Assembly (NCBI GenBank): GCA_963809665.1
Contig: CAWEKC010000003.1
Span: 25,277-89,276 of the forward strand
Reading direction: 5' to 3'
Length of the DNA: 64,000 nucleotides
DNA from: Candidatus Gottesmanbacteria bacterium
GTDB taxonomy: Bacteria > Patescibacteriota > Microgenomatia > UBA10105 > UBA927
Part shown: piece after piece, positions 17 through 57,094 of the stretch
How the letters are laid out: each line of letters begins with the position of its first letter
How positions within the stretch are numbered: position 1 is the stretch's first letter
Position numbers and translations under genes: made by a program
Notes under the pieces: generated by a model
What the model was told of the DNA's origin: nothing
The model's database searches: none
The model's input: the letters and a program-made list of their open reading frames with translations, nothing else

Positions 17-1963
17 ATGGCTGCCACATACACCGTCAAACAGGTCGCAGAAATACTAGGATATAGCACAAATAGTATTTATACCTTCCTCAAAGAAAAA
101 CGCATCAAAGGCGTCCGGGTAGGCAAAGGCAGATTCCGCATTCCGCAAAGCGAATTGAACCGGTTACTTCTTATTTCCAAGAGTCAGACAAGCATGGCGA
201 AAGAGCAGACAGGTATGGTTCCCATAACCGGGACTATTATATCGCCGGATATGGGAGGTATTCCGTTACACGAACAACACCACGTCTTTTCTCTTTCGGT
301 ATTCGGCACAACAAGGACGGTGACTGCGAGCATTTTCGATTGGTTTCTTGGTACTGGGGCGCTGGTTTCCGGCGTTGCCCTGTTCCTTTTCAACCAGACG
401 TTCGACGTTGTACACGTCCAATCGGTGGCGCCGATCATGCCGGCAGTTCGTATTCTCCTCATCGGCGGTGGCATCGGAATACTCCTGACGAATCTTACCT
501 ATACCGCCCACCAAACATGGCACAGAGTATTCCATGGGATCCTGGGTATTGCCGGTATCATCATGACGGTACTTTTAGTATTGACCAGGGATATAGATGC
601 GGTTGCTATCTATGGAACATTAACAGGTGTGATTATCCTTACTATGTTTGTCCGATTGGGGAAAGTTATCCCGTTTGCCCTCTATCTTACGCTCTTGGCG
701 GCAACCGCACCTATTGTCGCGTTTATAGCACCAACTGATTTTCATGTGCTGGCCTTAACCAACGCACTGAATACGACACCTGAAATCACTACCATTATAT
801 TATCGATCCTGTGTATTGTATTCATTCTTCTCCTTTGGGTAGGTCTGTACTGGAAGAAGGTGCTGTTCTGGTTAAGCACCTATGCTGCGGCAACGGCATA
901 TTTTGCATTGGCGTTTTGGTGTGCGTACGACCAATTCTGGTCCCGTGCGTTCTTTTTCATGATTATCGCACTCACATGTATGTATCTGCCGTCGTGGAAT
1001 GACCTTATCACGACCCGGAATAAAAAAGCGCACACAGTAGCCATCGGTGTTTTTTTAGCGATCATAATGGTAGCCCTTACGGGTGTCACGATTGTTCACG
1101 TGACCCAGCTTAATGTTATCGCGACTGTTGAGCGGGAAAATACTCAGAAGGTAGATTATGCCCGTGCGTCCATGGAAGGCGATCTTCGGAGTGTTAAATC
1201 CACAATATCGACAGCATCCATCAATCCGGATTTGGTGACCGCAACTGAGGAAAAAAACACGACATCGCTTATGGATTTGAGCCGCATCATGTTCGACAGC
1301 AGCAACAGTATTCAGAGGCTAGTCATATTGGACAAAGACGGTCAGGTGCTCTTTATGTATCCATTGGGTCAGTCTGGTGAGACGGATTTATCGTTCCGCG
1401 ATTACTTTATCCAGGCGAGGGACACCGGCAGGCTTTATGTGTCCGATATTTTTGAAACGCGCGTTGATAATACGCACCGGAAAGTCGTTACAATCGCTTC
1501 TCCGATTGTTGACGCGGACAAGCAGTTCGTCGGAGTCCTGGCCGCATCCCTTGATTTGGAAGCTATCAGCGCCCGCCTGCAAAAAATTGCAGTGGTTGAC
1601 CGCGGAGAATACATCATTGTACTTGATAGACATGGGAAACGGATCATACATCCCGTATCGTCTCTCCTCGGTACGGATACGGAACCCACTGACCCGACAC
1701 TGTTAGCGTTTCAGGGAAAAACAGGAGTGGGAGAAGGCGATACGTACGATGGAATTCATTCCCTGATTGCGTATACTCCCATCAGCTCTCTTCAATGGGC
1801 GATTGCACTTAAAGCTCCATATAACAATATTTATGCGCTTTCCAGTACGGCGAACATTGTCGTTGCAGGATTTATCATCGTCAGTATCATAATTGCCGCT
1901 ATCATATTCCAACTGGACTACATATATAAATATAAGCAGAATAATGACGGAGGTGGTCCATGA
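17..1963 (+). CDS. Membrane-bound one-component regulator: N-terminal Xis/MerR-type HTH, polytopic membrane region, C-terminal extracytoplasmic Cache-like sensor domain
   Basis: 648-aa ORF. N-terminus ([40 protein letters not shown]) resembles excisionase-family HTH_17, like the small Xis protein at 23105-23305. About 8 hydrophobic helices follow. The C-terminal 250 aa ([38 protein letters not shown]...[12 protein letters not shown]) is Cache/dCache-like. The stop overlaps the start of the next gene (ATGA). Confidence 0.6.
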
Positions 1964-4900
1964 TGTCCCGTGAAATCACGGGAGATCAGACGGTTCCGCC
2001 CTCGGGCGGTCTTGTCATTTTATTGGGACGCGTAAAATTAGCCTCAAAAACCGGAATTTACAAGTTTTTACAAGTATTCACCAAAAAAAACACCTGTTTG
2101 TACTACTTTTCCCAAACCCAGGGTGGCGGAATTTCGATCTTTGCACTTCTATTCATGACTATCCTACTCTTTCTGGGTATTACGGTTATGAAGAGCGGGA
2201 TCATTATTCCTCAACAATTAACGTCGCTTGATATCAATACCTCACAGCAAACCGGTATTGCACCGATACCGGCTCTCACAGCTGACGTGTTCTCTAAAAG
2301 CGATTTTTCCGGACCGTTTCTTGTAGTGGTTACACGGGCCGACGGGTCGTATTCCTATGCAATAGTGGATCAGGGAATACTTGTGGACGGTCATTTTGAG
2401 GGAGATGTACGTCTGCATTATCCGAACGGCGATTATGGTGTCATGGTGGAGCAACCCGATAAGTCCGTTCTGTTTATGACCAAGAAAGGCGGACGAGAAA
2501 CGGTGATCCTTACTTATCCGCTCATTGCAGCAATAAGATTGCCGGATGAGTCTATGGTGCCGGTAGAATTCCGTGATGCAACAATCCGCGACGGGGCATT
2601 GGTCGGCGATTTTCTTTTTTTTGAATACGCTGATAGAAAGCAAGTAACGGGCTACGTGACGCCGCGCGGGCAAAAATCGCAATTATCGGCGACACCGACA
2701 CTGACATCGCCTGATCCGGCCACATTACTGACACAGCGAGAAATACTGAAGCTCTATTTTGATATAGTCGGAAACGGTGATGTCAACATATTGGGTGTTA
2801 CAACAGAGAATAACGACACCAACGGATCGGTTAGTATTCAGCCGGGCGGTTTGGTATCAAGCGTCATTGTGGCAGAGCGCAATATCGATGAAGGCACCGT
2901 CCGACTCGTTTCGCCGCAGGGAGTCGCTGTAGGGGCCAACGTAAATATATCACAGCTTCTTCCCCAACTTACCGGTGTCGGAGGTTCATCTTTAACACAA
3001 TTAATCACGCAACTCATTAATCAGGGCGGGAATATTTCGGGAATCGGTGGTGCTGGCGCTACCGGACCGACAGGCCCCGCGGGATCAAGCGGTACAAACG
3101 GTGCGTCTATTACCGGTCCGACGGGGGCTACCGGTGCCGGTGCAACAGGTGCAACAGGAATTCAGGGTGATTCCGGAAGTCAGGGACCGGTCGGTGCAAC
3201 CGGAGAAGCAGGGTCCGGTGGCAGCGGCGGACCAACGGGTAGTACCGGAGCCACGGGCAACGCAGGAGCAAACGGTGATGCAGGCCCAACAGGATCAACG
3301 GGAGCAACTGGAAATGTAGGTTCAAATGGTATAAGCGGTCCAACGGGCGCCACAGGAATGTATGGCCCGACTGGTTCAACAGGAGGAACCGGTTCAGCGG
3401 GTGCAAATGGTCCTACAGGATCCACCGGAGCAACCGGATCAGCTGGTGCGGTTGGACCAACCGGTAGTACCGGGAATATGGGATCTGCAGGAGCATCTGG
3501 TCCAACCGGATCAACGGGCGCGACAGGGAATATCGGGGTTATTGGTGAAACAGGACCGACAGGAACAATAGGTCCTACCGGATTTGCCGGAGGAGCAGGT
3601 CCAACCGGAAGTACTGGTAATAACGGGCCAACAGGATCTACCGGACCAACCGGAAATGTAGGAGCTAATGGAGAAGTTGGTCCAACCGGAGCAATGGGTG
3701 TCACCGGAACTGCCGGAGGTGCGGGTCCTACAGGTCCAACCGGCATAGTCGGAGCCGTAGGAGCTAATGGTCCTACTGGTTCAACCGGAACCAATGGGAG
3801 TATCGGAGAACAAGGATCAACCGGCGCAACCGGAATTATCGGAACACAAGGTAGTTCCGGTCCTACCGGGTCTACAGGTGCAACTGGATTTAATGGTTCA
3901 TCCGGTCCCACAGGATCAACAGGAGCAACGGGAACACAAGGAGCTGTTGGGAGTTCCGGACCTACCGGTTCTACCGGAGCAGGTGGAGCACAAGGCAATT
4001 CTGGACCAACCGGAAGTACCGGAGCCACAGGAACACAGGGAGCTGTAGGTTCTTCCGGACCTACCGGATCAACGGGAGCTACGGGAACAGGCGGAACTCA
4101 AGGGTCATCCGGACCGACAGGTTCAACAGGTGCAACTGGAAGTGCAGGGGCCAATGGTCCCACGGGTTCAACAGGTGCAACTGGAATTGAAGGGGCCAAT
4201 GGTCCCACGGGTTCAACGGGGGCTACCGGAACGGGCGGAGCTAATGGTGCTTCCGGACCTACGGGACCTACTGGCGCAGGCGGAGCACAAGGATCCTCCG
4301 GACCGACAGGTGCTTCCGGTGCAACTGGAATAGGTGGACTACAAGGTTCATCCGGTCCCACAGGATCAACAGGAGCGACAGGAACACAAGGAGCTGTAGG
4401 TAGTTCCGGACCTACTGGGTCAACCGGTGCCACAGGTGGAGGTGGAGCTAACGGTCCTACGGGTTCATCAGGATCTACAGGTTCAACAGGAGCTAATGGT
4501 CCCACAGGTTCAACAGGAGCTACGGGTTCAGCAGGAGCAAACGGCCCTACGGGTTCATCCGGATCTACAGGTTCAACAGGAGCTAATGGTCCTACAGGTT
4601 CAACAGGAGCCACAGGAACGCAAGGAGCTGTAGGTAGTTCCGGACCTACGGGATCAACGGGAGCAGGAGGACTACAGGGAGAATCCGGTCCTACAGGCGC
4701 AACAGGAGCTACAGGAACACAGGGAGCTGTAGGTTCTTCCGGACCTACCGGATCAACGGGAGCAGGCGGAACCCAAGGTTCCTCCGGTCCTACGGGTTCA
4801 ACAGGGGCCACGGGAAATCAGGGATCTATAGGTTCTTTCGGACCCACCGGGAGTACCGGCGCCGAAGGATTACAAGGGTCCTCCGGTCCTACGGGTTCAA

Positions 4901-7900
4901 CAGGGGCCACGGGAAATCAGGGATCTGTAGGTTCTTCCGGACCCACCGGGAGTACCGGCGCCGAAGGATTACAAGGGTCCTCCGGTCCTACGGGATCAAC
5001 GGGAGCAACCGGAGGTGCAGGAGCCAATGGACCTACGGGTTCAACAGGAGTCACAGGAACACAAGGAGCTGTTGGTAGTTCCGGACCCACCGGTTCAACC
5101 GGATCTACGGGTTTAGTAGGAGCCAATGGACCAACGGGTTCAACAGGAGCAACAGGAACACAAGGAGCAAATGGAGCTTCCGGACCAACCGGTTCAACCG
5201 GAGCAGGCGGAACTCAGGGTTCCTCCGGACCTACAGGTTCAACCGGCGCAACCGGAGATGCTGGCGCCAATGGTCCCACAGGTTCAACCGGCGCAACCGG
5301 AGGTGCTGGCGCCAATGGTCCAACTGGTGCAACAGGATCTACGGGTCCAGCAGGAGCAAACGGTCCTACGGGTTCATCAGGTGCAACAGGAACACAAGGA
5401 GCTGTAGGGAGTTCCGGACCTACGGGATCAACGGGAGCAGGAGGACTACAGGGAGAATCCGGTCCAACAGGTGCAACCGGTGCCACCGGAACACAAGGAG
5501 CTGTAGGGAGTTCCGGTCCCACAGGTGCAACCGGAGCTGCAGGATTACAAGGTTCCTCCGGACCTACCGGGAGTACGGGTGCCACCGGAACACAAGGAGC
5601 TGTTGGTAGTTCCGGACCCACCGGGTCAACGGGTGCAACCGGAGGTGCTGGTGCCAATGGTCCCACAGGATCTACAGGATCTACAGGTGCAGGCGGAGCT
5701 AATGGCCCCACAGGATCTACAGGATCTACGGGTGCAGGCGGAGCTAATGGCCCCACCGGGTCAACGGGAGCTACAGGAACAGGCGGAGGTGCTGGACCTA
5801 CGGGTTCAACAGGAGTCACAGGAACACAAGGAGCTGTTGGTAGTTCCGGACCCACCGGGTCAACGGGAGCTACAGGAACAGGCGGCGCTAATGGTGCTTC
5901 CGGACCTACGGGATCTACTGGCGCAAATGGTCAAGAAGGCCCCACTGGAGCAACGGGTCCTACCGGTTCACAAGGTGGAGCTGCGGGTGCTTCCGGTCCC
6001 AGTGGTGCGACCGGTCCCACAGGAACTGCCGGAGCACAAGGTTCATCCGGACCCACCGGGAATACCGGCGCCGAAGGACTCCAAGGAGAATCCGGTCCCA
6101 CAGGTGCAACCGGAGCCACAGGAACGCAAGGATCCGTAGGTTCTTCCGGTCCCACAGGTGCAACAGGATCTGCAGGATTACAAGGATCATCCGGACCTAC
6201 CGGGTCTACAGGATCTACGGGTACGGGCGGAAGTGCTGGTCCTACTGGGAGTTCGGGCGCAACCGGAACCCAAGGATCCGTAGGTTCTTCCGGTCCCACA
6301 GGGTCAACGGGAGCAGGAGGACTACAGGGAGAATCCGGTCCTACGGGTGCAACAGGTGCAGGCGGAGCCAATGGTCCCACCGGTGCAACCGGAGCCACCG
6401 GAACCCAAGGAGCCGTTGGGAGTTCCGGTCCCACCGGGTCAACCGGCGCCGGAGGGTTGCAAGGTTCTTCAGGACCAACCGGGCAACAGGAGCAACCGGA
6501 ACCGGAGGCGCTAATGGTGCATCCGGTCCCACCGGGTCAACGGGATCTGCAGGATTACAAGGGTCATCTGGTCCGACTGGAAGTACCGGTGCAACCGGAG
6601 GTGCAGGAGCCAATGGTCCCACAGGGTCTACCGGTACAGGCGGCGCTAATGGTGCATCCGGACCAACGGGCGCAACAGGTGCAGGTGGAGCCAATGGTCC
6701 CACCGGTGCAACCGGAGCCACCGGAACCCAAGGAGCCGTTGGGAGTTCCGGTCCCACCGGGTCAACGGGATCTGCAGGATTACAAGGGTCATCTGGTCCG
6801 ACTGGAAGTACCGGTGCAACCGGAGGTGCAGGAGCCAATGGTCCCACAGGGTCAACCGGCGCCGGAGGGTTGCAAGGTTCTTCAGGACCAACCGGGTCAA
6901 CAGGAGCAACCGGAACCGGAGGCGCTGATGGGTGCATCCGGTCCCACCGGGTCAACGGGATCTGCAGGATTACAAGGGTCATCTGGTCCGACTGGAAGTA
7001 CCGGTGCAACCGGAGGTGCAGGAGCCAATGGTCCCACAGGGTCTACCGGTACAGGCGGCGCAATGGTGCATCCGGACCAACCGGGTGCAACCGGAGCCAC
7101 CGGAACCCAAGGAGCCGTTGGGAGTTCCGGTCCCACCGGGTCAACGGGATCTGCAGGATTACAAGGGTCATCTGGTCCGACTGGAAGTACCGGTGCAACC
7201 GGAGGTGCAGGAGCCAATGGTCCCACAGGGTCTACCGGCGCAGGTCAGGCGGCGCAATGGTTGCATCCGGACCAACGGGCGCAACAGGTGCAGGTGGAGC
7301 CAATGGTCCCACCGGTGCAACCGGAGCCACCGGAACCCAAGGAGCCGTTGGGAGTTCCGGTCCCACCGGGTCAACGGGATCTGCAGGATTACAAGGGTCA
7401 TCTGGTCCGACTGGAAGTACCGGTGCAACCGGAGGTGCAGGAGCCAATGGTCCCACAGGGTCAACCGGCGCCGGAGGGTTGCAAGGTTCTTCAGGACCAA
7501 CAGGCAGCACTGGAGCAACCGGAACCGAAGGAGCGTTGGGCAGTTCCGGTCCCACCGGGTCAACGGGATCTGCAGGATTACAAGGGTCATCTGGTCCGAC
7601 TGGAAGTACCGGTGCAACCGGAGGTGCAGGAGCGAATGGCCCCACAGGATCTACCGGTACAGGCGGCGCCAATGGTGCGTCTGGACCAACCGGGTCAACC
7701 GGAGCAACCGGAACCCAAGGAGCCGTTGGGAGTTCCGGTCCCACCGGGTCAACGGGATCTGCAGGATTACAAGGGTCATCTGGTCCGACTGGAAGTACCG
7801 GTGCAACCGGAGGTGCAGGAGCCAATGGTCCCACAGGGTCAACCGGCGCCGGAGGGTTGCAAGGTTCTTCAGGACCAACAGGCAGCACTGGAGCAACCGG

Positions 7901-8124
7901 AACCGGAGGCGCTAATGGTGCATCCGGTCCCACCGGGTCAACGGGATCTGCAGGATTACAAGGGTCATCCGGACCTACGGGAAGTACAGGCGCAACAGGT
8001 GCAGGAGCCAATGGTCCCACAGGGTCAACCGGCACGGAACAGGAGCAGTGGAGTCCAGGTCCCACAGGGTCAACGGGACTGCAGGATTACAAGGGTCATC
8101 TGGTCCGACTGGAAGTACCGGTGA
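1960..8124 (+). CDS. Giant collagen-like (Gly-X-Y) surface protein, N-terminal part. A 360-aa N-terminal domain with a TM/signal-anchor is followed by [10 protein letters not shown]-type triple-helix repeats, in frame from about 3050 to 6485. Downstream of 6485 the ORF continues only in a shifted frame.
   Basis: ORF from ATGATG at 1960. A hydrophobic segment ([20 protein letters not shown]) is followed by a globular region. From about nt 3050 there is an uninterrupted (G-X-Y)n run of more than 1100 triplets rich in [10 protein letters not shown]. At about 6485 a 1-nt deletion relative to sister repeats (gggcaacagg versus gggtcaacagg) moves the GXY phase to another frame. Confidence 0.6.
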
Positions 8125-9240
8125 ACCAGGTGCAGGAGCCAATGGTCCCACCGGTGCAACCGGAGCCACCGGAACCCAAGGAGCCGTTGGGAGTTCCGGT
8201 CCCACCGGGTCAACGGGATCTGCAGGATTACAAGGGTCATCTGGTCCGACTGGAAGTACCGGTGCAACCGGAGGTGCAGGAGCCAATGGTCCCACAGGGT
8301 CAACCGGCGCAACAGGTGCAGGTGGAGCCAATGGTCCCACCGGTGCAACCGGAGCCACCGGAACCCAAGGAGCCGTTGGGAGTTCCGGTCCCACCGGGTC
8401 AACGGGATCTGCAGGATTACAAGGGTCATCTGGTCCGACTGGAAGTACCGGTGCAACCGGAGGTGCAGGAGCCAATGGTCCCACAGGGTCAACCGGCGCC
8501 GGAGGGTTGCAAGGTTCTTCAGGACCAACAGGCAGCACTGGAGCAACCGGAACCGGAGGCGCTAATGGTGCATCCGGTCCCACCGGGTCAACGGGATCTG
8601 CAGGATTACAAGGGTCATCTGGTCCGACTGGAAGTACCGGTGCAACCGGAGGTGCAGGAGCCAATGGTCCCACAGGGTCAACCGGCGCAACAGGTGCAGG
8701 TGGAGCCAATGGTCCCACAGGGTCAACCGGCGCAACAGGTGCAGGTGGAGCCAATGGTCCCACAGGATCTACCGGTACAGGCGGCGCTAATGGTGCATCC
8801 GGACCAACGGGCGCAACAGGTGCAGGTGGAGCCAATGGTCCCACCGGTGCAACCGGAGCCACCGGAACCCAAGGAGCCGTTGGGAGTTCCGGTCCCACCG
8901 GGTCAACGGGATCTGCAGGATTACAAGGGTCATCTGGTCCGACTGGAAGTACCGGTGCAACCGGAGGTGCAGGAGCCAATGGTCCCACAGGGTCTACCGG
9001 CGCCGGAGGGTTGCAAGGTTCTTCAGGACCAACCGGGTCAGCACAGGAGCAACCGGAACCGGAGGCGCTAATGGTGCATCCGGTCCCACCGGGTCAACGG
9101 GATCTGCAGGATTACAAGGGTCATCTGGTCCGACTGGAAGTACCGGTGCAACCGGAGGTGCAGGAGCCAATGGTCCCACAGGGTCAACCGGCGCAACAGG
9201 TGCAGGTGGAGCCAATGGTCCCATACAGGCGGCGCTAATG
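6480..9240 (+). pseudogene. Middle segment of the collagen-like gene with at least 7 frame-disrupting indels. The GXY phase hops between frames (about 6485, 6935, 7063, 7245, 8040-8110, 9046, 9226). Either the giant gene is pseudogenized or this is a repeat-assembly artefact.
   Basis: I aligned repeat copies by eye. Differences from the consensus copy include gctgatgggtgcatcc versus gctaatggtgcatcc (+1), gcgcaatggtg versus gcgctaatggtg (-1), a 2-nt insertion at about 9046 and a 13-nt deletion at about 9226. ORFs 6870..9071 (frame 0) and 8048..9238 (frame 2) carry GXY segments. Confidence 0.5.
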
Positions 9241-11300
9241 GTGCATCCGGACCAACGGGCGCAACAGGTGCAGGTGGAGCCAATGGTCCCACCGGTGCAA
9301 CCGGAGCCACCGGAACCCAAGGAGCCGTTGGGAGTTCCGGTCCCACCGGGTCAACGGGATCTGCAGGATTACAAGGGTCATCTGGTCCGACTGGAAGTAC
9401 CGGTGCAACCGGAGGTGCAGGAGCCAATGGTCCCACAGGGTCTACCGGCGCCGGAGGGTTGCAAGGTTCTTCAGGACCAACAGGCAGCACTGGAGCAACC
9501 GGAACCGGAGGCGCTAATGGTGCATCCGGTCCCACCGGGTCAACGGGATCTGCAGGATTACAAGGGTCATCTGGTCCGACTGGAAGTACCGGTGCAACCG
9601 GAGGTGCAGGAGCCAATGGTCCCACAGGGTCAACCGGCGCAACAGGTGCAGGTGGAGCCAATGGTCCCACAGGGTCAACCGGCGCAACAGGTGCAGGTGG
9701 AGCCAATGGTCCCACAGGATCTACCGGTACAGGCGGCGCTAATGGTGCATCCGGACCAACGGGCGCAACAGGTGCAGGTGGAGCCAATGGTCCCACCGGT
9801 GCAACCGGAGCCACCGGAACCCAAGGAGCCGTTGGGAGTTCCGGTCCCACCGGGTCAACGGGATCTGCAGGATTACAAGGGTCATCTGGTCCGACTGGAA
9901 GTACCGGTGCAACCGGAGGTGCAGGAGCCAATGGTCCCACAGGATCTACCGGTACAGGCGGCGCTAATGGTGCATCCGGACCAACGGGCGCAACAGGTGC
10001 AGGTGGAGCCAATGGTCCCACCGGTGCAACCGGAGCCACCGGAACCCAAGGAGCCGTTGGGAGTTCCGGTCCCACCGGGTCAACGGGATCTGCAGGATTA
10101 CAAGGGTCATCTGGTCCGACTGGAAGTACCGGTGCAACCGGAGGTGCAGGAGCCAATGGTCCCACAGGGTCAACCGGCGCCGGAGGGTTGCAAGGTTCTT
10201 CAGGACCAACAGGCAGCACTGGAGCAACCGGAACCGGAGGCGCTAATGGTGCATCCGGTCCCACCGGGTCAACGGGATCTGCAGGATTACAAGGGTCATC
10301 TGGTCCGACTGGAAGTACCGGTGCAACCGGAGGTGCAGGAGCCAATGGTCCCACAGGGTCAACCGGCGCAACAGGTGCAGGTGGAGCCAATGGTCCCACA
10401 GGGTCAACCGGCGCAACAGGTGCAGGTGGAGCCAATGGTCCCACAGGATCTACCGGTACAGGCGGCGCTAATGGTGCATCCGGACCAACGGGCGCAACAG
10501 GTGCAGGTGGAGCCAATGGTCCCACCGGTGCAACCGGAGCCACCGGAACCCAAGGAGCCGTTGGGAGTTCCGGTCCCACCGGGTCAACGGGATCTGCAGG
10601 ATTACAAGGGTCATCTGGTCCGACTGGAAGTACCGGTGCAACCGGAGGTGCAGGAGCCAATGGTCCCACAGGATCTACCGGTACAGGCGGCGCTAATGGT
10701 GCATCCGGACCAACGGGCGCAACAGGTGCAGGTGGAGCCAATGGTCCCACCGGTGCAACCGGAGCCACCGGAACCCAAGGAGCCGTTGGGAGTTCCGGTC
10801 CCACCGGGTCAACGGGATCTGCAGGATTACAAGGGTCATCTGGTCCGACTGGAAGTACCGGTGCAACCGGAGGTGCAGGAGCCAATGGTCCCACAGGGTC
10901 AACCGGCGCCGGAGGGTTGCAAGGTTCTTCAGGACCAACAGGCAGCACTGGAGCAACCGGAACCGGAGGCGCTAATGGTGCATCCGGTCCCACCGGGTCA
11001 ACGGGATCTGCAGGATTACAAGGGTCATCTGGTCCGACTGGAAGTACCGGTGCAACCGGAGGTGCAGGAGCCAATGGTCCCACAGGGTCAACCGGCGCAA
11101 CAGGTGCAGGTGGAGCCAATGGTCCCACCGGTGCAACCGGAGCCACCGGAACCCAAGGAGCCGTTGGGAGTTCCGGTCCCACCGGGTCAACGGGATCTGC
11201 AGGATTACAAGGGTCATCCGGACCTACGGGAAGTACAGGCGCAACAGGTGCAGGCGGAGCGAATGGCCCCACAGGATCTACCGGTACCGGCGGGGCCAAT
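6480..11300 (+). repeat. Tandem array of at least 6 near-identical 729-bp units (243 codons = 81 Gly-X-Y triplets; sub-blocks of about 501 + 228 bp) inside the collagen-like gene
   Basis: Identical antisense ORF images lie at 9964 and 10693 (729 bp apart). Identical sense strings (tgcatccggaccaacgggcgcaacaggtgcaggtggagcc...) recur at 9241, 9741, 9969, 10476 and 10699. Long stretches have no stops in 2 sense frames and 1 antisense frame. Confidence 0.85.
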
Positions 11301-13142
11301 GGTGCGTCTGGACCAACCGGTGCAACAGGAGCCACCGGAAGTGCAGGAGTTAATGGTCCCACAGGGTCAACCGGCGCCACCGGAGGTGCAGGAGCCAACG
11401 GTGCATCAGGTCCTACCGGCGCAACCGGGGCTACCGGGGAAGTAGGAAATGAAGGGCAAGTCGGACGAACCGGTCCTACAGGCTCAACGGGAGCCACGGG
11501 CAATGCTGGAGCAAATGGTCCAACAGGATCTACCGGCGCAACAGGAAATGCTGGAGGAAATGGTGTTGGTGGGCCTACGGGTTCAACCGGCGCAACCGGA
11601 ACTGGCGGAGGCGCCGGTGCCGGAGGTCCGACCGGGTCCACAGGCGCAACAGGTTCCGCCGGAGGCGGAGGAGCAAATGGTCCCACGGGTTCAACGGGTG
11701 CTACTGGTGGAGGTGGAGTAAACGGTCCCACTGGCCGAACAGGAGCCACCGGAGCCACGGGCAATGCTGGAGGCGCCGGTCCCACCGGGTCCACAGGCGC
11801 AACAGGTACTGCTGGCGGCGGAGGAGCCAATGGTCCTACCGGGTCAACAGGCGCAACAGGAAATGCTGGAGGAAATGGTGTTGGTGGTCCCACAGGATCA
11901 ACAGGTGCCACCGGAACTGGCGGAGGTGCCGGTGCCGGAGGCCCGACCGGGTCCACCGGCGCTACTGGTGGAGGCGGAGCAAACGGCCCCACCGGTCGAA
12001 CAGGAGCCACCGGAGCCACAGGGGTTGCAGGTGCGAATGGTCCCAGTGGATCAACCGGCGCAACCGGTGCAGCCGGAGCGATGGGCGCCGGAGGGACTGC
12101 ACTATTAACATCAGTTGCCAACCTTATTCAACCCTACCCGGCAAATGGTCTCAGTTTTGCTTTAGGGAATACCGGCGGCGGAGATCTTACCAATGCAGCC
12201 ACTTCTTCTGCGTACATCGTCTTTTTTGCCGCAAATCAACCCGGCGGTGGTGGATCAGCAGGGGATATTTATATGGGATCTACGTTGACGCTTGGTAATA
12301 ATACGACGGGTGGAACTATTACAACTAAAGATGCAGGAGAAGCGTTAACGATAGATACCAGTACGAACGGATCTATAAGTGTCAGTACGGGGACGACAGG
12401 AAAAACAATTTCAATCGGTACGAACGCATCTGCTGCAAATACAATTGCGATTGGTTCTTCCAATGCATCAGCAACACTTGCTCTTAATGGCGGCGACGAC
12501 TGGTCGGTTTCGACAGCAGGACTTGCGGTACTTGGTGTGACGGCAAACAGTTTTACTTTTAATCCCGGATCAGGTCCTGTGTATGCAGGGACTGCCCGGC
12601 CGACACGTAAAGTGACCCTTACACCCGAATATGCCGGTGCAGTGTTGACAGGGGCAGGGACAGGAACCATGACGTCTGATTTTTGTGAACAAGGGTATAG
12701 TGCCAACATCACGGATACTAATACGGGCGCGTGTGAATCCGGGCAAGTTCACAATTATTACACATGGACATCCGCATCCGGTTCAAATACGTATAGTATA
12801 TATGTACGGTGGAGGGTACCGGACAATTTCTCTGCTACCGGTTGGACATCAGCAGGGACAATTACCAATCCGATTACAGTTTGGGCCCGACGGTCTGATT
12901 CTACTGACGGAACGGTTACCGTAACCCTGTATGATACTGCCGGTACAGCCGAAAATACTACCAGCGGGACCCAAGTGGCGGGGTCCAACAGTACGTGGAC
13001 CCAGACGTCGCTTGAAGCAACACCATTTGAAGGAACGTATACCGCCGGTGGATATATCACCCTGAAGATTGATCTCCAAGTGACTGGTACAGATACAACC
13101 ATGGTAGGTGAGATAGATATTGATTATCTGTCAACAAATTAA
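9072..13142 (+). CDS. Collagen-like protein, C-terminal part. The frame is open from 9072 and the first ATG is at 9459. About 950 GXY triplets are followed by a 345-aa beta-rich C-terminal globular domain (candidate trimerisation or receptor-binding head).
   Basis: Uninterrupted GXY from about 9240 to 12100. The C-terminal segment ([14 protein letters not shown]...[27 protein letters not shown]) is Thr/Ser/Gly-rich and beta-strand-like, reminiscent of BclA/C1q-like or phage-fibre distal domains. Stop TAA at 13140-13142. Confidence 0.65.
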
Positions 13143-13143
13143 T

Positions 13144-16100
13144 ATGAAACACACAATAACGAAGTGGCTGTGTTTCATTACAATATTCAATGTATTGTCA
13201 GGGACTTTAATGCCCGTAGCAGTTGCGCAGGAGTCAGCTTCTACGTCTGCGACATCGGATATATCAAATCCCCCGGAAGCAACACCATCTACCCTTTTGG
13301 ATCAACTTGAGGCAACAGATAGCGCATCCATAAGCGCCATAATTGACACACCGGTTAGTTCAATATCTGCGGATCTTTTGACCCCGACCCCGACACTGGA
13401 AATGCTCACCGGTCCTTCCGGGGTATTATCTCCGTCTGCATCTATGAAAGGCCCACCTCACTTCCGTGCGATGATGAGACACGCGTTTCGGGCAGGAGAA
13501 GTCCCGTCCGTCATTGTTGATGCCCTTACCATATCATCTATAAAAACAACTGTGCGGGATAGTAAAGGTACGGTTATAGACAGCACCCCTTCTATAGAAA
13601 CGTATGACGGGGGAATACGTGTGTCCGTCATCCCGAAAACGTCCATGAAACCCGGGAAATATACAATAGTTATTGAAGACACCTCGACCGGAATGACCAT
13701 TACGCAGGATTTTTTATGGGGGGTCTTGGCTTTCAATACGGATCAGGCGACATACAATCCCGGAGATACGGCAGACATTGCGCTTGCGGTGTTGGATGAT
13801 ATAGGTATGATGGTTTGTGACGCAGATGTAACCCTTACTATTCTCAGTCCGGCGAGAACAACAACAACACTTTCTACTGCGGACGGGACGATCCGTGTAA
13901 CGCCGGCGTGTACACTTCATGATTTTACCCTCAAACCCGATTACGAGACCGAATTTCAAACATCCGATGAGGGAGTCTATCAGGTTTTGTTGTCTGCAAC
14001 GACAAAAAACGGCACCAATGCGATTCAGGATTCATTTCAGGTATCATCCGATATGCCGTTTCAGGTGAAACGAATAAGTGCGACCCGTATTTATCCGCCG
14101 AAACCGTATCCGATGACTATCGATATTACCGCCAATGAAGATTTTTCAGGGATTGTGACCGAAACGGTTCCAGAAGATTTTACCATTATGCCTCTTGCCG
14201 GGGTACAGCCGTATGCCGATATGGGGGCGGCCGCTCCCGTCACGGAGCCGCAAACACCCATACTGCTGAGCATGCCGTTTGAGGGGAATTACCCGGTGAC
14301 GCTCGGGTTTGGCGACCGTATTAAGGATCCGCAGGTGAAACAACTGTACGAGCAGAATGGTTTAAAAGGTCACGACGGAGCGGATTTTGCCATGCCAATC
14401 GGTACGCAGGTATTGGCAGTTGACGCGGGGACGGTTTCCCGTATTGCGGATAATCCGTACGGGACAACGGTTGTTATTGATCACCCGTGGGGACGAAGTT
14501 ATTATGGGCATCTGAGTGTTGTGCAGGTTAAAGTTGGGGACATGGTCAAGAAAGACGCGCCCATTGCGTTATCAGGGAATACGGGTCTTACGACCGGAGC
14601 GCATTTGCATTTTGGCATGAAACTGACAACAAATGATGTGAACAACGGGTATTACGGGAAAATAGACCCGATGCCGTACTTGACCTCATCGGTGACATAT
14701 CAATCCGAAAGCAAAGGAAAACAGATTTCCTGGAATGTGGATATCAAATCCGGTGAAAAAATTCAACTCGGTTATACATTTAAAGCGCCTGAGGTCAGCC
14801 CGCGATTTTATCTGATCGGACCGCTCACGTTCCGCGCGTCAAATCCCGCGGAGCCTGCTCCTGCCGTACCTGCGGATAATCCGTTTGTCCTGGGAATCGC
14901 TTCTGCAAGCGCGGCACCTTCGGAGGCGTCCGGGTCGGCAACAGCCACACCGTCGGCCGTTCTAGCAGCGACTGCTGCTGCACCAACAAATAGTATAGTG
15001 TATCAGGAGCCGCGCCGTTGGCAGATTGCGGCGGACGCAGTCGGTTTCATTGGGAGTGTCAGTAACGTTGGCAACACCAGTGGAGGCGATGTCACACTCA
15101 CTCTCTCAGGTCTTGGGCTTCAAGAGGATGATCTTGTTATTGCTGCCTACAGTATCGCTGATGCTGACAATGTTGATATGGCTATGGCGGAGGTGGGCGG
15201 GATTGGGGGATGGACGGAGGTTGCCGACTTGTTCTCTGATGATACGTATGATGCTAATCTCGGCGTATATTACAAGGTGATGGGTGCGTCACCGGACGCA
15301 TCGGTGATATTTGATGGTGTGGGCGGTACTGACACTCAAACAGGCGCGGTAGCGATGGCTTTCCGGGGCGTGGATCCGACGACCCCGATGGACGTGGCGG
15401 CGACCACAGTCTCGGGCGCCTCGGGTCTCAACACTATGCATCCCAACCCGCCATCCATTAATCACAATAATCCCTCCGGCGTCTGGACGGTTATCGCTGG
15501 CAGCAATGTCAATGGTACCCAAGGCGCCCGAACCTTCACGTTCCCGACCGGCTACACAACAAACGCGGTTCAGCGATCCTCAAATGATACCAGTGATGGT
15601 ATTGTCGGACTGGGGTATCGGACGAATCCCTCTGATCCCGAAGATCCCGGCCAGATGACTGCCAGCGGCACCGATGGCACCGGTTACGCTTTTGCCGCCG
15701 TCACCATGGCGCTCAGGCCCGCGCCTGAAGTTCCCGGCATTGACGGGTCGCTGGGCAAAACGTCTGACGGATGGGCCGGGGCAGTACCGGTTTATGGGAC
15801 GTTAACCGGTGGGTTAAGCCAGGGCGATTATCCGTATGCCAGGGCAGAGGTAACCACCGCTGCGAGCCAAACTTTCTATACAGATATGACCTGGGATAGC
15901 GGAGACAGCCGGTTTGAAGGCACAATTTATCCCGGTTCTAATTATTGTATGGGATGCGATGATCCGACATACGGTACGTTCAGTGTGACCGTGGAGTTGG
16001 ATGATAATGCCGGTTTTTCCTCCATTGATTATTCCTCCGACGCAGCCACATTTTCAACGGTCAGAACATACAAGAGGAGTTCTATGGATAATGTAACAAA

Positions 16101-17436
16101 CACTAACTATACTGATTTCAATCCGGTTTGGAGCACTGACCACTGGAATATGTCGATAAGTGATTTTGGGTTTGCTATGCAGAGCGGCACGGGCACAAAT
16201 TTTGCCGTTGCCGTTCCTATCCATCCTGACACGTCATCCCCGAGCAATTTTACCGTAGCCTATAACGGCTCGAGTGTTTCTGCGGGTAGTGCCGAATCAA
16301 CGTCTAACGCCTGGTGGTACAACAGCACATCCCACACACTATATCTGCAATTTGCCTCGCTGACAACCACACTGGTTGATGTGGATATTACGTTTGATAC
16401 CGACACGGACCTTTTCGCTACCAGGTTCAACTGGACGTATACGGCAGACATGGGTTCCCGTCGTTACGCGAACGGCATAATCATTGCCAACCAATACCTT
16501 ACTGCTCCCATATACGGACTGCCTCAAGCTGATTGCGCCAACGACAATGAGTGTGAAGCGGCCGGCATGCAGGCGGAGACGCGCGCCCATGAAGCAGGAG
16601 GACCCGACGAGTCCACCGACTGCATGGAACGGCCCGCGGTCCACGTGGATGATACGCCCGTAGCCGACAACAGGACGCTGGGATATCGGTATGATATCAA
16701 ATGGAAACCAACAGAATGGGCGGACTGGATAACGGAACAGGACAATAATCATTTTGTCATCGTCGAAAATTCGGATGACACGGCAACGACCGGCTGGGGT
16801 CAGCAATTGGACAATGGTATTGCCGCGTTAAGAACCCAAACGTATTATGCAGGGGAAAGATATATCAAGAATGTGTACGCCTTTACCAATAATGATTCCT
16901 CATCACATAAATATCCGATGGTCTGGGAGCGCGAACAATGGCACGCAACCGACAGGCAGGCGAACGATCACGGAAGATTCCAGGGCGATACGTCGGATGT
17001 GGTCATGGAACAAAGGGTATCAATGTCAGGGTACACCTGTCCCTGGCAGACTGCGTATGACAGCGGGACATATATTAATATGGGATTGGTTTATGACAAA
17101 AACAACCTTCCGGATTATGGTATTTTTGCAGTAGAGCCCTTTTTGGCACCGGATACGGCGGAATGGCCGATCGGTATAACAAGCAGTCACGGTACCCAGA
17201 CAACCGATCAGACCGGATTTGAAAAGACCTGGAGTTCGGTGGCTCCCGATGAAACAGTGAGTTTCACTTTCTGGCACGTTCATAACGCCGAAAGTTCCTG
17301 GGCAAACATAGAGTCTGCCATGGATGCAGATTGTGCAGAACTCAATACGTCTGCTCCGTCCGGTCCCACCACCGATCAGCAGATGCGCCACGGTAAATGG
17401 TTTGACAGTGGGGTAGAGCAGGGGTTTACATTCTAG
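13144..17436 (+). CDS. Giant secreted protein (about 1430 aa) with an embedded M23/LytM peptidoglycan endopeptidase domain
   Basis: Signal peptide MKHTITKWLCFITIFNVLSGTLMPVAVAQE. M23 motifs are present: HDGADFAMPIGTQVLAVDAGTV...YGTTVVIDHP...GHLS...SGNTGLTTGAHLHFG (HxxxD...HxH). Big-like beta domains lie N-terminal, and a long Cys-containing C-terminal region has unknown function. The gene starts 2 nt after the collagen gene stop (the ORF track starts at 13120, but the ATG at 13144 follows the stop). Confidence 0.75.
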   Translation: MKHTITKWLCFITIFNVLSGTLMPVAVAQESASTSATSDISNPPEATPSTLLDQLEATDSASISAIIDTPVSSISADLLTPTPTLEMLTGPSGVLSPSASMKGPPHFRAMMRHAFRAGEVPSVIVDALTISSIKTTVRDSKGTVIDSTPSIETYDGGIRVSVIPKTSMKPGKYTIVIEDTSTGMTITQDFLWGVLAFNTDQATYNPGDTADIALAVLDDIGMMVCDADVTLTILSPARTTTTLSTADGTIRVTPACTLHDFTLKPDYETEFQTSDEGVYQVLLSATTKNGTNAIQDSFQVSSDMPFQVKRISATRIYPPKPYPMTIDITANEDFSGIVTETVPEDFTIMPLAGVQPYADMGAAAPVTEPQTPILLSMPFEGNYPVTLGFGDRIKDPQVKQLYEQNGLKGHDGADFAMPIGTQVLAVDAGTVSRIADNPYGTTVVIDHPWGRSYYGHLSVVQVKVGDMVKKDAPIALSGNTGLTTGAHLHFGMKLTTNDVNNGYYGKIDPMPYLTSSVTYQSESKGKQISWNVDIKSGEKIQLGYTFKAPEVSPRFYLIGPLTFRASNPAEPAPAVPADNPFVLGIASASAAPSEASGSATATPSAVLAATAAAPTNSIVYQEPRRWQIAADAVGFIGSVSNVGNTSGGDVTLTLSGLGLQEDDLVIAAYSIADADNVDMAMAEVGGIGGWTEVADLFSDDTYDANLGVYYKVMGASPDASVIFDGVGGTDTQTGAVAMAFRGVDPTTPMDVAATTVSGASGLNTMHPNPPSINHNNPSGVWTVIAGSNVNGTQGARTFTFPTGYTTNAVQRSSNDTSDGIVGLGYRTNPSDPEDPGQMTASGTDGTGYAFAAVTMALRPAPEVPGIDGSLGKTSDGWAGAVPVYGTLTGGLSQGDYPYARAEVTTAASQTFYTDMTWDSGDSRFEGTIYPGSNYCMGCDDPTYGTFSVTVELDDNAGFSSIDYSSDAATFSTVRTYKRSSMDNVTNTNYTDFNPVWSTDHWNMSISDFGFAMQSGTGTNFAVAVPIHPDTSSPSNFTVAYNGSSVSAGSAESTSNAWWYNSTSHTLYLQFASLTTTLVDVDITFDTDTDLFATRFNWTYTADMGSRRYANGIIIANQYLTAPIYGLPQADCANDNECEAAGMQAETRAHEAGGPDESTDCMERPAVHVDDTPVADNRTLGYRYDIKWKPTEWADWITEQDNNHFVIVENSDDTATTGWGQQLDNGIAALRTQTYYAGERYIKNVYAFTNNDSSSHKYPMVWEREQWHATDRQANDHGRFQGDTSDVVMEQRVSMSGYTCPWQTAYDSGTYINMGLVYDKNNLPDYGIFAVEPFLAPDTAEWPIGITSSHGTQTTDQTGFEKTWSSVAPDETVSFTFWHVHNAESSWANIESAMDADCAELNTSAPSGPTTDQQMRHGKWFDSGVEQGFTF

Positions 17437-20813: not shown

Positions 20814-21188
20814 TTATTTCTTCTTGTATAGCCGTGACAGTAATTCAAGATTATTTTGTGCATCATCGGCATCCATACCGCGGATAAGTTGGCCCATATG
20901 ACTGATAAGCTCTTTCGGATTTGGTGTCCGGAGGTTAATTTCGTCTGTTAACGCGCCGCGGATGTGTTTCAGGGCTTTTTCCGGATCAGGAAAAATTGCA
21001 TGGCTGTAGGTTTTTCCCTTGAATTCCTCGTCCCGTAACCGGCGCATTTCTTCAACCGGAAGGTTATAAAGAGGAATCCCCTGATATTTTTTTTGTACCT
21101 GCTCGAGAATCAGGTTTTGAACTTTGGGACCGAGCTTTTTAAATCCAAATTCTTCCTGTTTCTCTTTTTTTTCTTCTGAATGGCTCAT
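20814..21188 (-). CDS. Lys/Glu-rich hypothetical protein
   Basis: 124-aa ORF with no recognisable motif. Confidence 0.35.
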   Translation of the reverse strand: MSHSEEKKEKQEEFGFKKLGPKVQNLILEQVQKKYQGIPLYNLPVEEMRRLRDEEFKGKTYSHAIFPDPEKALKHIRGALTDEINLRTPNPKELISHMGQLIRGMDADDAQNNLELLSRLYKKK

Positions 21189-21260
21189 AGCAAAGACCTA
21201 AACATAGTCTGTACAGGTGAATTATATCAGAAAGTAACAACAAGTGTGTATAATACTATC

Positions 21261-22214
21261 ATGTACCACCGCGTACTGGTTGCGGGCACGTTTGACGGAA
21301 TCCATGCCGGTCATGAGGCAATCCTCACGGCGGCAGTCGAGGCAGGGGAACACGTGACCGTAGGCCTCACGTCTGATGTATTTGTCGCAAAATTCAAAAA
21401 AAACCAACCTATTGCGACGTTTTCAGACCGGAAAGCAGGATTAGAGCAGTGGCTGGGCGTCCATGGATACTCGGACCGCGCGTTGATTATCCCGATAGAC
21501 GACCCGTACGAGCCGGCAGCCAGCCTCACCGACCTTGAGATGCTTGTGGTAACCCCCGACACCACATCGCGGGGCGAAGAGATTAACAGCATCCGTAAAG
21601 GTAAAGGCCTTGCGCCGTTAGGACTGCTCGTCGTGCCGCTCGTCCCCGCACAGGATTTAAAGCCCGTTTCTTCAACGCGCATACGTTCCGGAGAAATTGA
21701 TACAACCGGCCGACTCATCCTTCCGTTGACCTTGCGGCCGGAGTTGGGCAAACCCGTGGGGAACGTTTTAATCGGCGATGCGATCGGCAGTTCCATCGAA
21801 ACGCACCGCAGTGATGTTATTGTTGCCGTGGGCGATATTACGACCAAAACACTTCTTACAGCAGGTATAACCCCGTCACTTTCCATCGTAGATTTTCAGG
21901 TGAATAGAAAACCATACCCGGAACTGGACGGACGGTTTGCGGGCCTTGGCATTTTCCGCATCGTGGTACCCAGCGGTCCCGGTTTTATAGCTAAAGAGGC
22001 GATCGACGTGATTAAAAAATGGAGCACACATCCGGAAGAAAAGATCGTTCTGACGGTCACGGGTGAAGAGGATTTACTTGCCCTGCCCGCTATTGCCTAC
22101 GGGCCGGTCGGAGCAATCATATATTATGGTCAACCGGGGCAAGGTCTTGTTGAAGTAATCATAAATCAGGAAAAGAAAAATCAGGCGATTGCACTCCTGG
22201 AAAAGTTTACGTAA
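21261..22214 (+). CDS. Fusion of a PPAT-like cytidylyltransferase (HxGH) domain with a DUF359 domain (archaeal-type GTP-dependent dephospho-CoA kinase): candidate bifunctional CoA-synthesis enzyme
   Basis: N-terminus VLVAGTFDGIHAGHEAIL...STRIRSGEI is the nucleotidyltransferase HxGH/ISSTxxR pattern. The C-terminus VGDITTKTL...IVDFQVNRK...VTGEEDLLALPAI matches DUF359 hallmarks (GEEDL). Confidence 0.5.
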   Translation: MYHRVLVAGTFDGIHAGHEAILTAAVEAGEHVTVGLTSDVFVAKFKKNQPIATFSDRKAGLEQWLGVHGYSDRALIIPIDDPYEPAASLTDLEMLVVTPDTTSRGEEINSIRKGKGLAPLGLLVVPLVPAQDLKPVSSTRIRSGEIDTTGRLILPLTLRPELGKPVGNVLIGDAIGSSIETHRSDVIVAVGDITTKTLLTAGITPSLSIVDFQVNRKPYPELDGRFAGLGIFRIVVPSGPGFIAKEAIDVIKKWSTHPEEKIVLTVTGEEDLLALPAIAYGPVGAIIYYGQPGQGLVEVIINQEKKNQAIALLEKFT

Positions 22215-38307: not shown

Positions 38308-38406
38308 ACGGGTATATGACTTCTTGTTCTTATCGTACCCAACAGGAAAAATAATTGCAAGTACCTATCTACCATTATATATACGTTCACAGATGCGTTG
38401 TGTGGG

Positions 38407-38477
38407 CAGGGCCACGTGGAGTCGAACCACGATCAGAGGTTTTGGAGACCCCCATTCTACCATTGAACTATGGCCCT
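38407..38477 (-). tRNA. trnW: tRNA-Trp (anticodon CCA)
   Basis: Cloverleaf folded by hand: acceptor AGGGCCA/TGGCCCT, D-arm GTTC/GAAT, anticodon loop CTCCAAA, T-arm CGTGG-TTCGACT-CCACG. Confidence 0.8.
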
Positions 38478-38493
38478 AGATGGATTAATTATA

Positions 38494-54683: not shown

Positions 54684-54803
54684 TGTCCGGTCGGTTACGA
54701 AACGGGTACAAGCGCATGAATCTCCAAAAGATGACGCCAATTCTCGGAGCAGCCGGACCACGTTAACCGGTTTTGTCGCCCCGCCGCAGTCAGTTCTGAG
54801 GGA

Positions 54804-56039: not shown

Positions 56040-57094
56040 ATGCTTGATTGGTTATTCGGGCTTCTTTCGCATGACTTAGGGATAGATCTCGGGACGGCAA
56101 ATACCCTCGTGTATGTACGCGGTAAAGGGATTGTAATCCGCGAGCCTTCTGTCGTGGCGCGGCACCGTAAAACCAAACAGATTGTTGCCATCGGTATGGA
56201 AGCTAAAAAAATGCTCGGGAAGACCCCGACGACCATTGAGGCATTCCGGCCTTTGAAAGACGGTGTCATTGCCGATTTCGATGCGGCTGAGGCAATGCTC
56301 AAACATTATATACAGCTTGTCCACGCCTCACCCCAGCATTCCCTTCTACCCAAAATTCCCCGTCCGAAAGTGGTCATCGGTATTCCTTCGGGGTCACGGA
56401 GGTCGAAAGACGGGCCGTGCAGGAAGCGGCGATTATGGCAGGCGCGCGGGAAGCATACCTTATCGAGGAACCCATGGCGGCGGCAATCGGCGCCGGACTC
56501 CCGGTCCAGGAAACCAACGGAAGCTTTATCTGTGACATTGGCGGGGGGACTAGCGAAATTGCTGTACTGTCTTTGGGAGGCATTGTTATTTCCCGTAGTA
56601 TCCGCATCGCCGGCGATGAGATGGACGAGGCAGTCGTTAACTTTATGCGGCTCAAATATTCACTCATGATCGGTGAGCAGACAGCCGAAGATATAAAAAT
56701 TGCCGTAGGGTCTGCGTACCCGGTTGACAAATCGGAACGGCAAACGGTGGTACGCGGCCGGGATATCGAAACCGGATTGCCAAAATCCATTCGCGTGAAC
56801 GAATCCGAAATCCGTGAAACGCTCGCATCGGTTATCCACGAAATTGTTGAAGGTATAGCCGAAACCATCGAGGAAACTCCGCCGGAGCTAATCGGTGACA
56901 TCATGGAACATGGGATTGTGCTTGCCGGCGGGGGGGCATTAATCCGCGGAATCGATAAGCTTATTGCCACGGAAGTTAAAATGCCGGTCTGGATAACCGA
57001 TGACCCGCAGACGGCAGTCGTACGCGGCTGCGGGATGCTGCTGGATGACGATATATTGCTTCATAAGGTAAAGGTTGCCGCACGCAAATTATGA
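56040..57094 (+). CDS. mreB: Rod-shape determining protein MreB with an apparent -1 frameshift in a G-run at 56390-56393
   Basis: The N-terminus ...PKVVIGIPSG continues in the +2 frame as VTEVERRAVQEAAIMAGAREAYLIEEPMAAAIGAG...VLAGGGALIRGIDK. One extra G restores the frame. Confidence 0.85.

Follow-up and report, generated by a model that had tools for sequence, protein, structure and literature searches.

How should a collagen-like gene be read whose coding sequence passes through all three reading frames within 2.75 kb, and keeps to one frame on either side? The gene lies in the window analysed here, a stretch of 64,000 nucleotides of contig CAWEKC010000003.1. The original prediction had offered three answers: mis-consensus or collapse of a repeat in the assembly, a pseudogenised giant gene, or a slippage-tolerant variable surface protein. 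The host is a Patescibacteria bacterium near Candidatus Gottesmanbacteria. An archaeal origin, considered on account of Pfam matches to DUF359 and DUF515, was ruled out because MreB, PBP2, M23 and YkuD are present and homologues and related contigs carry Gottesmanbacteria or Patescibacteria names. A phage origin was likewise rejected: no DNA match was found in the phage collection, and the context is chromosomal (ribosomal proteins, NusG, PurA, TopA, PBP2). The locus is laid out as follows.

17..1963, forward strand: sensor gene upstream of the collagen-like gene, 648 aa (Pfam domains HTH_17 and dCache_1).
1960..13142, forward strand: conceptual single collagen-like gene, 11.2 kb, about 3,727 codons after repair, with N-terminal domain, Gly-X-Y tract and C-terminal domain.
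1960..8124, 6870..9071, 8048..9238, 9238..11445 and 9459..13142, forward strand: open reading frames (ORFs) of this gene as deposited.
1960..3045, forward strand: N-terminal non-collagen domain, frame 1.
3046..6482, forward strand: upstream part of the Gly-X-Y tract, frame 1, about 380 triplets, Collagen PF01391.
6483..9230, forward strand: frame-hopping segment, a mosaic of 45/99/189/225-nt modules with 93-99% match to the clean unit.
9231..12101, forward strand: downstream part of the Gly-X-Y tract, frame 0, 319 unbroken triplets running on into the C-terminal domain.
12102..13142, forward strand: conserved C-terminal domain, 346 aa, frame 0.
13120..17436, forward strand: downstream gene, 1438 aa, with a Peptidase_M23 domain (Pfam).

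The stop codon of the sensor gene overlaps the ATG of the collagen-like gene at 1960. According to its translation, the N-terminal domain contains a hydrophobic membrane-anchor segment at about residues 56-78 (nt 2125-2193). This domain has one homologue, P0001 (66% identity), and an orthologue of equal layout on contig L002; it gave no match in a Pfam search, and a scan of the genome contigs with it as query found no relatives. The Gly-X-Y tract contains consecutive GGN-N6 runs of 316, 319, 101 and 82 triplets, is composed of G (39%), T (19%), A (16%), S (11%) and P (6%), and is identified as Gly-X-Y coding by a Pfam match of 3046-4500 to Collagen PF01391 (E=6.9e-58). Upstream of the frame-hopping segment its copies are diverged (60-70% identity) and free of frameshifts. 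Once repaired, the translation of 1960..13142 has no stops, and its peptide motifs match those of the clean region save for one garbled stretch, TEQEQWSP (nt 8033-8058). The C-terminal domain is 75-79% identical to its relatives over the whole length and has 40 homologues, mostly partial proteins on Patescibacteria metagenome contigs. Its residues 140-346 (nt 12519-13139) were modelled by AlphaFold as a β-sandwich (pLDDT 75-93), for which a Foldseek search against the PDB returned carbohydrate-binding modules (CBMs) and phage tailspikes (E about 1e-4 to 1e-5, target-normalised TM at most 0.60). The head is thus predicted to resemble CBMs and the C-terminal domains of phage tailspikes; a sequence-family match was not found in Pfam.

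Bacterial collagen-like proteins are marked by a long Gly-X-Y tract matching PF01391 and by non-collagen terminal domains together with a means of surface attachment; the gene here has the tract, non-collagen domains at both ends and, as putative attachment, the N-terminal hydrophobic segment. The locus is a real gene, single and probably intact, for a giant collagen-like cell-surface protein. Bacterial collagen-like surface proteins (PF01391) include Scl1 and Scl2 of Streptococcus and BclA of Bacillus anthracis. Like these, the protein combines a long unbroken Gly-X-Y tract, rich in Thr, Ala, Ser and Pro, with a globular non-collagen end domain, and the tract is made of tandem DNA repeats whose number varies among relatives (about 1000 triplets in the whole stalk here, 347 in L002, 253 in L009). 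It differs from Scl1/Scl2 and BclA in its anchor, which is an N-terminal transmembrane segment instead of an LPXTG motif or exosporium attachment, in a stalk several times longer, in its head, a CBM-like β-sandwich by fold search, in its Patescibacteria host and in its conserved neighbours, an HTH/dCache sensor gene and an M23 peptidase gene. The HTH_17/dCache_1 gene also adjoins the collagen-like gene in L002 and L001, the M23 peptidase gene in L002 and L003. A protein-database search with the repaired Gly-X-Y translation returned generic collagen-like proteins (best identity 44-71%) and no match from the same organism, and a literature search on collagen-like proteins in Patescibacteria yielded nothing relevant.

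Concerning the repeats, at least six near-identical 729-bp units had been postulated. Only 2.6 units are in register, accompanied by one displaced copy.

9224..11140, forward strand: the sole true 729-bp tandem array, 2.63 units of 81 triplets each.
8301..9000, forward strand: 700-nt copy of the unit, displaced by 952 nt.

Units of the array are 99.7-99.9% identical, without gaps or indels. Ungapped identity at offset 729 reaches 90-100% only for 9200-10400 and is 14-46% everywhere upstream. The displaced copy aligns without gaps to 9253-9952 and 9982-10681 (99.6-99.7% identity) and stands in frame 2 solely because of indels upstream of it. Positions 6427-8300 are a mosaic of sub-repeats (TRF periods 45, 99, 189, 225 and 448) which match the clean unit by 93-97% at irregular offsets. 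Recent expansion or concerted evolution, as originally proposed, can therefore be upheld for the 2.6 clean units and not for the remainder.

Expressed as coordinate mod 3, the Gly-X-Y phase is 1 for 3046-6489, 0 for 6489-6938, 1 for 6931-7245, 0 for 7269-8006, 2 for 8075-9043, 1 for 9046-9225 and 0 for 9231-12101; with a further, compensated excursion at 7062-7083, the order across the segment is 1→0→1→0→1→0→2→1→0. The segment contains the following indels.

Single indels: -1 at 6483, +1 at 6930, -1 at 7062, +1 at 7083.
Cluster at 7237-7261: +6, -1, -1, +1.
Compensated pair at 7535-7543, and -3 at 7997.
Garbled cluster at 8033-8058: +2, -1, +1, -2.
Downstream indels: -1 at 8078, +2 at 9037, -13 at 9224.

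The original prediction of at least seven indels (+1, -1, +2, -13) moving the phase through all frames was accurate; we count about 17 events that are not multiples of three. It was also right that the flanks stay in frame, over 3.4 kb upstream (3046-6482) and over 3.9 kb downstream to the stop at 13142 (9231-13142). All eight net frame changes fall within 27% of the span of Gly-X-Y tract and C-terminal domain (P about 3e-5 under a uniform distribution). Overall, the frame stays shifted: the N-terminal part is in frame 1 and the C-terminal part in frame 0. Within otherwise identical repeats, garbled indel clusters of 10-30 nt are found at 7237-7261, 7535-7543 and 8033-8058, and other indels compensate each other in pairs separated by 8-21 nt. 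Several change the length of a short G or T run by a single base; many lie away from homopolymers. About three of ten sites are near a GATC, which was put down to chance, since every module contains GATC.

Do the shifts serve a function? Over the 956 codons of 9231-12101, 2 stops occur in the +1 frame, whose peptide is rich in P, Q, V and E; the +2 frame has 10 stops and an R content of 31%, and one antisense frame has none, in agreement with the open alternative frames and the P/Q/E-rich or R-rich shifted peptides foreseen earlier. With two sense frames and one antisense frame nearly stop-free, every indel still leaves a long ORF. Tandem-repeat surface proteins are often variable, and a slippage-tolerant or phase-variable surface protein, or programmed ribosomal frameshifting, could be envisaged. 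However, the codon composition itself leaves alternative frames open, in the undamaged part too; such frames are a by-product of GGN-NCN-rich coding and no evidence of tolerance. Phase-variable contingency genes, which also comprise repeat-bearing surface-protein genes with frame changes, switch at a single homopolymer or short-repeat tract, whereas here about 17 events are scattered and none lies in a long tract. The longest homopolymer in the collagen region (2901-12200) is 5, and neither a long homopolymer nor a short tandem tract was found there at the switch points. Programmed frameshifting, as in dnaX, prfB and insertion-sequence transposases, likewise changes the frame inside one gene, but it would here require at least eight successive recoding events, in both directions, with the net frame unrestored and the shifts not conserved in orthologues. 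XXXYYYZ slippery heptamers were not found within ±15 nt of the shift sites (the only three in the tract lie elsewhere), and the scattered sites revealed no common motif. Clean relatives have no shift at all. Functional frameshifts are thus very unlikely, and the slippage-tolerant surface protein was not borne out.

The relatives give a consistent picture. In all six clean-assembly relatives in which Gly-X-Y sequence adjoins the C-terminal domain (L002, L003, L008, L009, L010, L011), the tract is in a single frame, namely that of the C-terminal domain. L002 carries at 5771..11071 a complete syntenic orthologue of like architecture in one ORF. In contrast to these clean assemblies, the noisy assembly L001 has at least four frameshifts in the upstream sensor gene, one in the N-terminal domain, and a Gly-X-Y tract that hops between frames likewise. 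Moreover, the contig carries comparable breaks in other conserved single-copy genes, which are intact in relatives.

MreB, 56040..56669 and 56417..57094: split, matching Pfam profile positions 2-104 and 113-321.
M50 peptidase: +1 insertion near 50090, intact in L004.
Conserved 340-aa protein, 54339-55382: at least three indels (A-run, C-run, inserted C), intact in L004.

Addition of one G to the GGGG run ending at 56393 restores a 351-aa MreB which is 93% identical to P0045 without gaps; a relative has GGGGG at this site. Altogether, comparable conserved coding sequence of the contig contains at least five frameshifts in 17.5 kb. Neither the repaired versions of MreB and the M50 peptidase nor the as-is ORFs had a match in exact look-ups. 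These frameshifts could in principle be real mutations.

The substitutions point in the same direction. Between broken and clean copies we counted 50, of which 40 (80%) are at third positions of the Gly-X-Y frame, and the split between synonymous and non-synonymous changes is 39 to 11. The Gly-X-Y frame was therefore under selection. Given the single-frame relatives, the frameshifts in other genes of the contig, the substitutions in the Gly-X-Y frame and the garbled clusters of 25 nt, we conclude that the frame-hopping of 6483-9230 most likely consists of non-biological consensus errors of the assembly (probability about 0.7). Of the first answer offered originally, mis-consensus in a repeat is thereby best supported, on circumstantial evidence. 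The indels would be residual errors of a metagenome consensus built from long reads, concentrated where reads from similar but non-identical repeat modules resist placing and polishing. The 203.5-kb contig spans the 9-kb repeat, short-read assemblies break at it (a Logan contig ends near window position 3924; L003, L008 and L010 start inside), and long reads probably underlie the assembly. An identical copy of the 648-aa sensor protein occurs in the Logan assembly of ERR12037368; for the partial product of 655 aa predicted from the Logan contig, an exact look-up gave no match. A literature search for the run accession found nothing.

In nanopore assemblies, homopolymer indels and frameshifts are a documented defect (PMC9262707). 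Compared with that account, the present case is alike in its single-base indels, several of them at homopolymers, which split conserved genes, and in the frame-hopping of the related noisy contig L001; it differs in that many repeat indels lie off homopolymers, at some 20 times the background of the contig. In 6483-9230 there is about one indel per 160 nt, as compared to 1 per 3.5 kb in ordinary genes of the contig, while the most repetitive part, 9224-11140, and the gene's other 8.4 kb have none; a repeat-specific failure of polishing or consensus therefore has to be assumed. A homopolymer-length census of the window and its relatives did not tell the explanations apart.

The assembly may in addition be structurally wrong, with repeats collapsed, expanded or mis-joined, such that module order or number in 6.4-9.2 kb is unlike the genome. 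The 13-nt deletion at 9224 lies exactly where the irregular mosaic gives way to the 729-bp array; being untypical of base-calling error, it may have arisen from stitching or may be real. Upstream, the modules are offset irregularly (by 413, 987, 1030 and 952), and the garbled clusters could mark pile-ups of reads from different copies. On the other hand, the L002 orthologue has irregular modules too in its clean ORF, and collagen-like genes normally have sub-repeats arranged in a hierarchical mosaic. N runs, inversion or abrupt composition change were not seen in the region, and the flanks are syntenic with relatives. Collapse or misjoining is accordingly possible but doubtful; it is compatible with consensus errors, and both can hold.

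If the indels are real, the gene would be a very recent pseudogene, or a disrupted allele of the dominant strain. As deposited, it would encode a headless, membrane-anchored protein of 2054 aa (1960..8124), whose last 550 or so residues are mostly out of frame. The indels do stand in the deposited sequence, the net frame is unrestored, and the protein collection holding other products of the contig has none for this gene. A one-T deletion from GGCGGCGCTAATGG is shared by two copies, at 7062 and 7256, as expected from duplication of a mutated module; it could be a real mutation, later duplicated. Yet the damage is limited to 2.75 kb and spares the 3.9 kb downstream including the 346-aa C-terminal domain. 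Neither damage all along the gene nor an even spread of substitutions over codon positions, the signature of a pseudogene, was found. No relaxed selection is seen. Normal pseudogene decay would show the opposite of the ratio counted here, about 17 indels to 10 substitutions outside third positions; the garbled clusters and compensating pairs do not resemble natural mutation, and essential-type genes on the contig show like defects. With purifying selection in the Gly-X-Y frame and the undamaged 3.9 kb downstream, pseudogenisation is tenable only as a very recent event, and we regard it as unlikely. Less probable still, and improbable by any measure, is that a 2.7-kb repeat block gained about 17 frameshifts in a natural Patescibacteria population while its codons kept the signature of selection. 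Real indels would imply a burst of repeat-associated indel mutagenesis, e.g. by error-prone repair during repeat recombination, and could imply that a headless, frame-scrambled stalk is expressed as a variant surface structure.

Since the indels are most likely consensus errors, the finding is an ordinary one. The frame-hopping is mainly a quality warning: indels remain uncorrected in this contig, and neither the gene calls at the repeat and its surroundings nor those of MreB, the M50 peptidase and the 340-aa protein should be taken for pseudogenes. The underlying collagen-like gene is of modest interest. It is a member of a family, conserved in Patescibacteria, of collagen-like stalk proteins that have a membrane anchor and a CBM-like head, encoded beside a sensor and an M23 peptidase, which is almost always truncated in short-read assemblies because contigs break inside the repeat. 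The protein putatively forms a stalk bearing an adhesive head, and its distal β-sandwich may bind glycans. Such a collagen-like fibre could plausibly play a part in the attachment of these episymbiotic bacteria to their hosts.

The block at 3.0-12.1 kb is distinguished by a strong purine skew and a G+C content of 58-65%, as compared to 47-50% in the rest of the window. It is Gly-X-Y coding: its longest series of consecutive GGN-N6 triplets numbers 319, and it matches Pfam Collagen (E=6.9e-58). The frame-hopping described in the original prediction is present in the sequence: between 3046 and 12101 the Gly-X-Y phase (coordinate mod 3 of the triplets) passes through all three values, and the flanks of the frame-hopping segment each keep one frame.

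Gly-X-Y segments and their phase
3046-6489, phase 1
6489-6938, phase 0
6931-7245, phase 1
7269-8006, phase 0
8075-9043, phase 2
9046-9225, phase 1
9231-12101, phase 0

A further short, compensated phase excursion lies at 7062-7083. About 17 indels of a length other than a multiple of three were counted in the tract, and those named individually beforehand were all recovered (-1 at 6483, +1 at 6930, +2 at 9037, -13 at 9224). The alternative frames of 9231-12101 also correspond to their earlier description, in that 2 of the 956 codons of the +1 frame, which is rich in P, Q, V and E, are stops, while the R-rich +2 frame contains 10 stops and one antisense frame contains none. These open frames are a by-product of composition; they occur in the undamaged part of the tract as well.

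The repeat itself does not have the predicted structure of at least six near-identical 729-bp units. Ungapped identity at offset 729 reaches 90-100% only in 9200-10400 and is 14-46% throughout upstream of 9200. With gaps allowed, the sole 729-bp tandem array is found at 9224-11140, where 2.63 units are 99.7-99.9% identical and gap-free. An additional 700-nt copy (8301-9000) matches with 99.6-99.7% identity at a displacement of 952 nt, and 6427-8300 is a mosaic of 45-, 99-, 189- and 225-nt modules which match the clean unit by 93-97% at irregular offsets.

The frame-hopping of the collagen-like gene is most likely an assembly artefact. In-frame relatives, defects in conserved genes, the substitution pattern, the form of the indels and the local nature of the damage together point to consensus error in an assembly that was probably built from long reads. 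The 203.5-kb contig spans a 9-kb repeat where short-read assemblies break, and homopolymer indels and frameshifts are a known weakness of nanopore assemblies (PMC9262707).

Concerning the relatives, the syntenic gene in the 100-kb JGI contig L002 is one ORF (5771..11071) with 347 triplets in a single frame, and in the related contigs L003, L008, L009, L010 and L011 the Gly-X-Y tract next to the C-terminal domain shares the frame of that domain. Frame-hopping among relatives is seen in L001 only (ENA ERZ25039479 contig_55471, 8026-12736), where the N-terminal domain is 66% identical and the collagen-like tract also hops ahead of the contig end. L001 is noisy throughout, with at least four frameshifts in the sensor gene and one in the N-terminal domain; thus, a noisy assembly reproduces the phenomenon.

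Moreover, ordinary conserved genes of the contig studied here are affected likewise, with 5 frameshifts in 17.5 kb of sequence comparable with relatives:

49569-50196, minus strand, M50-family peptidase homologue with a +1 insertion near 50090 (CTCGGGAGATCCT instead of the expected CTCGGGGATCCT), intact in the related contig L004
54339-55382, plus strand, conserved 340-aa hypothetical protein between the Wzy_C gene and mreB, with at least three indels, at about 54680 (A-run), 54770 (C-run) and 55265 (inserted C)
56040-57094, plus strand, MreB, divided into two ORFs at 56390-56393, with GGGG here versus GGGGG in L004

Addition of one G to the GGGG of mreB restores 351 residues which align gap-free with the intact relative at 93% identity. 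A further indel probably lies close to the end of the gene for the 340-aa protein, and the next 650 nt or so, up to mreB, contain no ORF, as compared to a 66-nt gap in relatives.

Broken and clean copies of the repeat differ by 50 substitutions, 40 of them at third codon positions in the Gly-X-Y frame and 39 synonymous (11 not), which indicates that the broken copies evolved under selection in the very frame that the indels now destroy. With some 17 frame-breaking indels against 10 substitutions outside the third position, the balance is the reverse of what the ordinary decay of a pseudogene produces. Several indels crowd into garbled stretches of 10-30 nt amid otherwise identical repeats (7237-7261, 7535-7543, 8033-8058), others form compensating pairs spaced by 8-21 nt, and several are one-base length changes in short G or T runs. 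The damage ends at 9230; the following 3.9 kb, including the entire C-terminal domain, are clean.

Indels occur about once per 160 nt in 6483-9230, roughly 20 times the contig background, while the most repetitive part of the gene is free of them; a repeat-specific failure of consensus or polishing therefore has to be assumed. This density, the recurrence of the same deletion in two modules (7062 and 7256) and the 13-nt deletion at 9224, which is unlike a base-calling error, leave some room for a very recent real disruption of the gene, which we consider unlikely. Lying exactly on the boundary of mosaic and regular array, the 13-nt deletion fits an assembly seam, even though it could also be a real deletion. 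Functional readings of the shifts, such as recoding or switching, are without support. The surroundings of every shift (15 nt to either side) lack a slippery heptamer, homopolymers in the Gly-X-Y tract do not exceed a length of 5, and the shift sites have no motif in common; furthermore, the N-terminal and C-terminal parts finish in different frames.

With frames joined, 1960-13142 is a single stop-free gene of about 3,727 codons, comprising an N-terminal domain in which residues 56-78 form a hydrophobic anchor, a tract of about 1000 Gly-X-Y triplets and a C-terminal domain of 346 residues. The 40 homologues of the latter are nearly all short partial proteins from metagenome contigs, several of them named Patescibacteria. 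Its last 200 residues are predicted with confidence (pLDDT 75-93) to form a β-sandwich. In a Foldseek comparison with solved structures, this fold came closest to carbohydrate-binding modules and to the C-terminal domains of phage tailspikes (E about 1e-4 to 1e-5). Relatives keep the gene order of HTH/dCache sensor, collagen-like gene, M23 peptidase and ribulose-phosphate epimerase. Further features were observed downstream:

13120-17436, plus strand, M23-peptidase protein of 1438 aa (910 and 801 aa in relatives), its extra middle part including a weak MG2-domain match
21180-22214, plus strand, cytidylyltransferase-like domain fused to DUF359, a family associated with archaea; conserved in L002 and L003
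27543-30516, minus strand, NusG, L11 and L1 gene cluster
28960-29886, unannotated 308-aa ORF between nusG and rplK, with no Pfam match
35664-38307, minus strand, two neighbouring proteins of secreted type, the first containing a PKD domain and the other a terminal type I dockerin domain
38403-38478, tRNA-Trp, just upstream of this gene pair

The genome is bacterial, carrying MreB, PBP2, M23, YkuD, ribosomal proteins, PurA and TopA. The organism is present in the sequencing run ERR12037368. Its best genomic relative, RIFOXYB1_FULL_47_11, together with the names in the MreB cluster, places it close to Candidatus Gottesmanbacteria. The product of the locus is a bacterial collagen-like surface protein of an already known kind, unusually long and from a Patescibacteria lineage.
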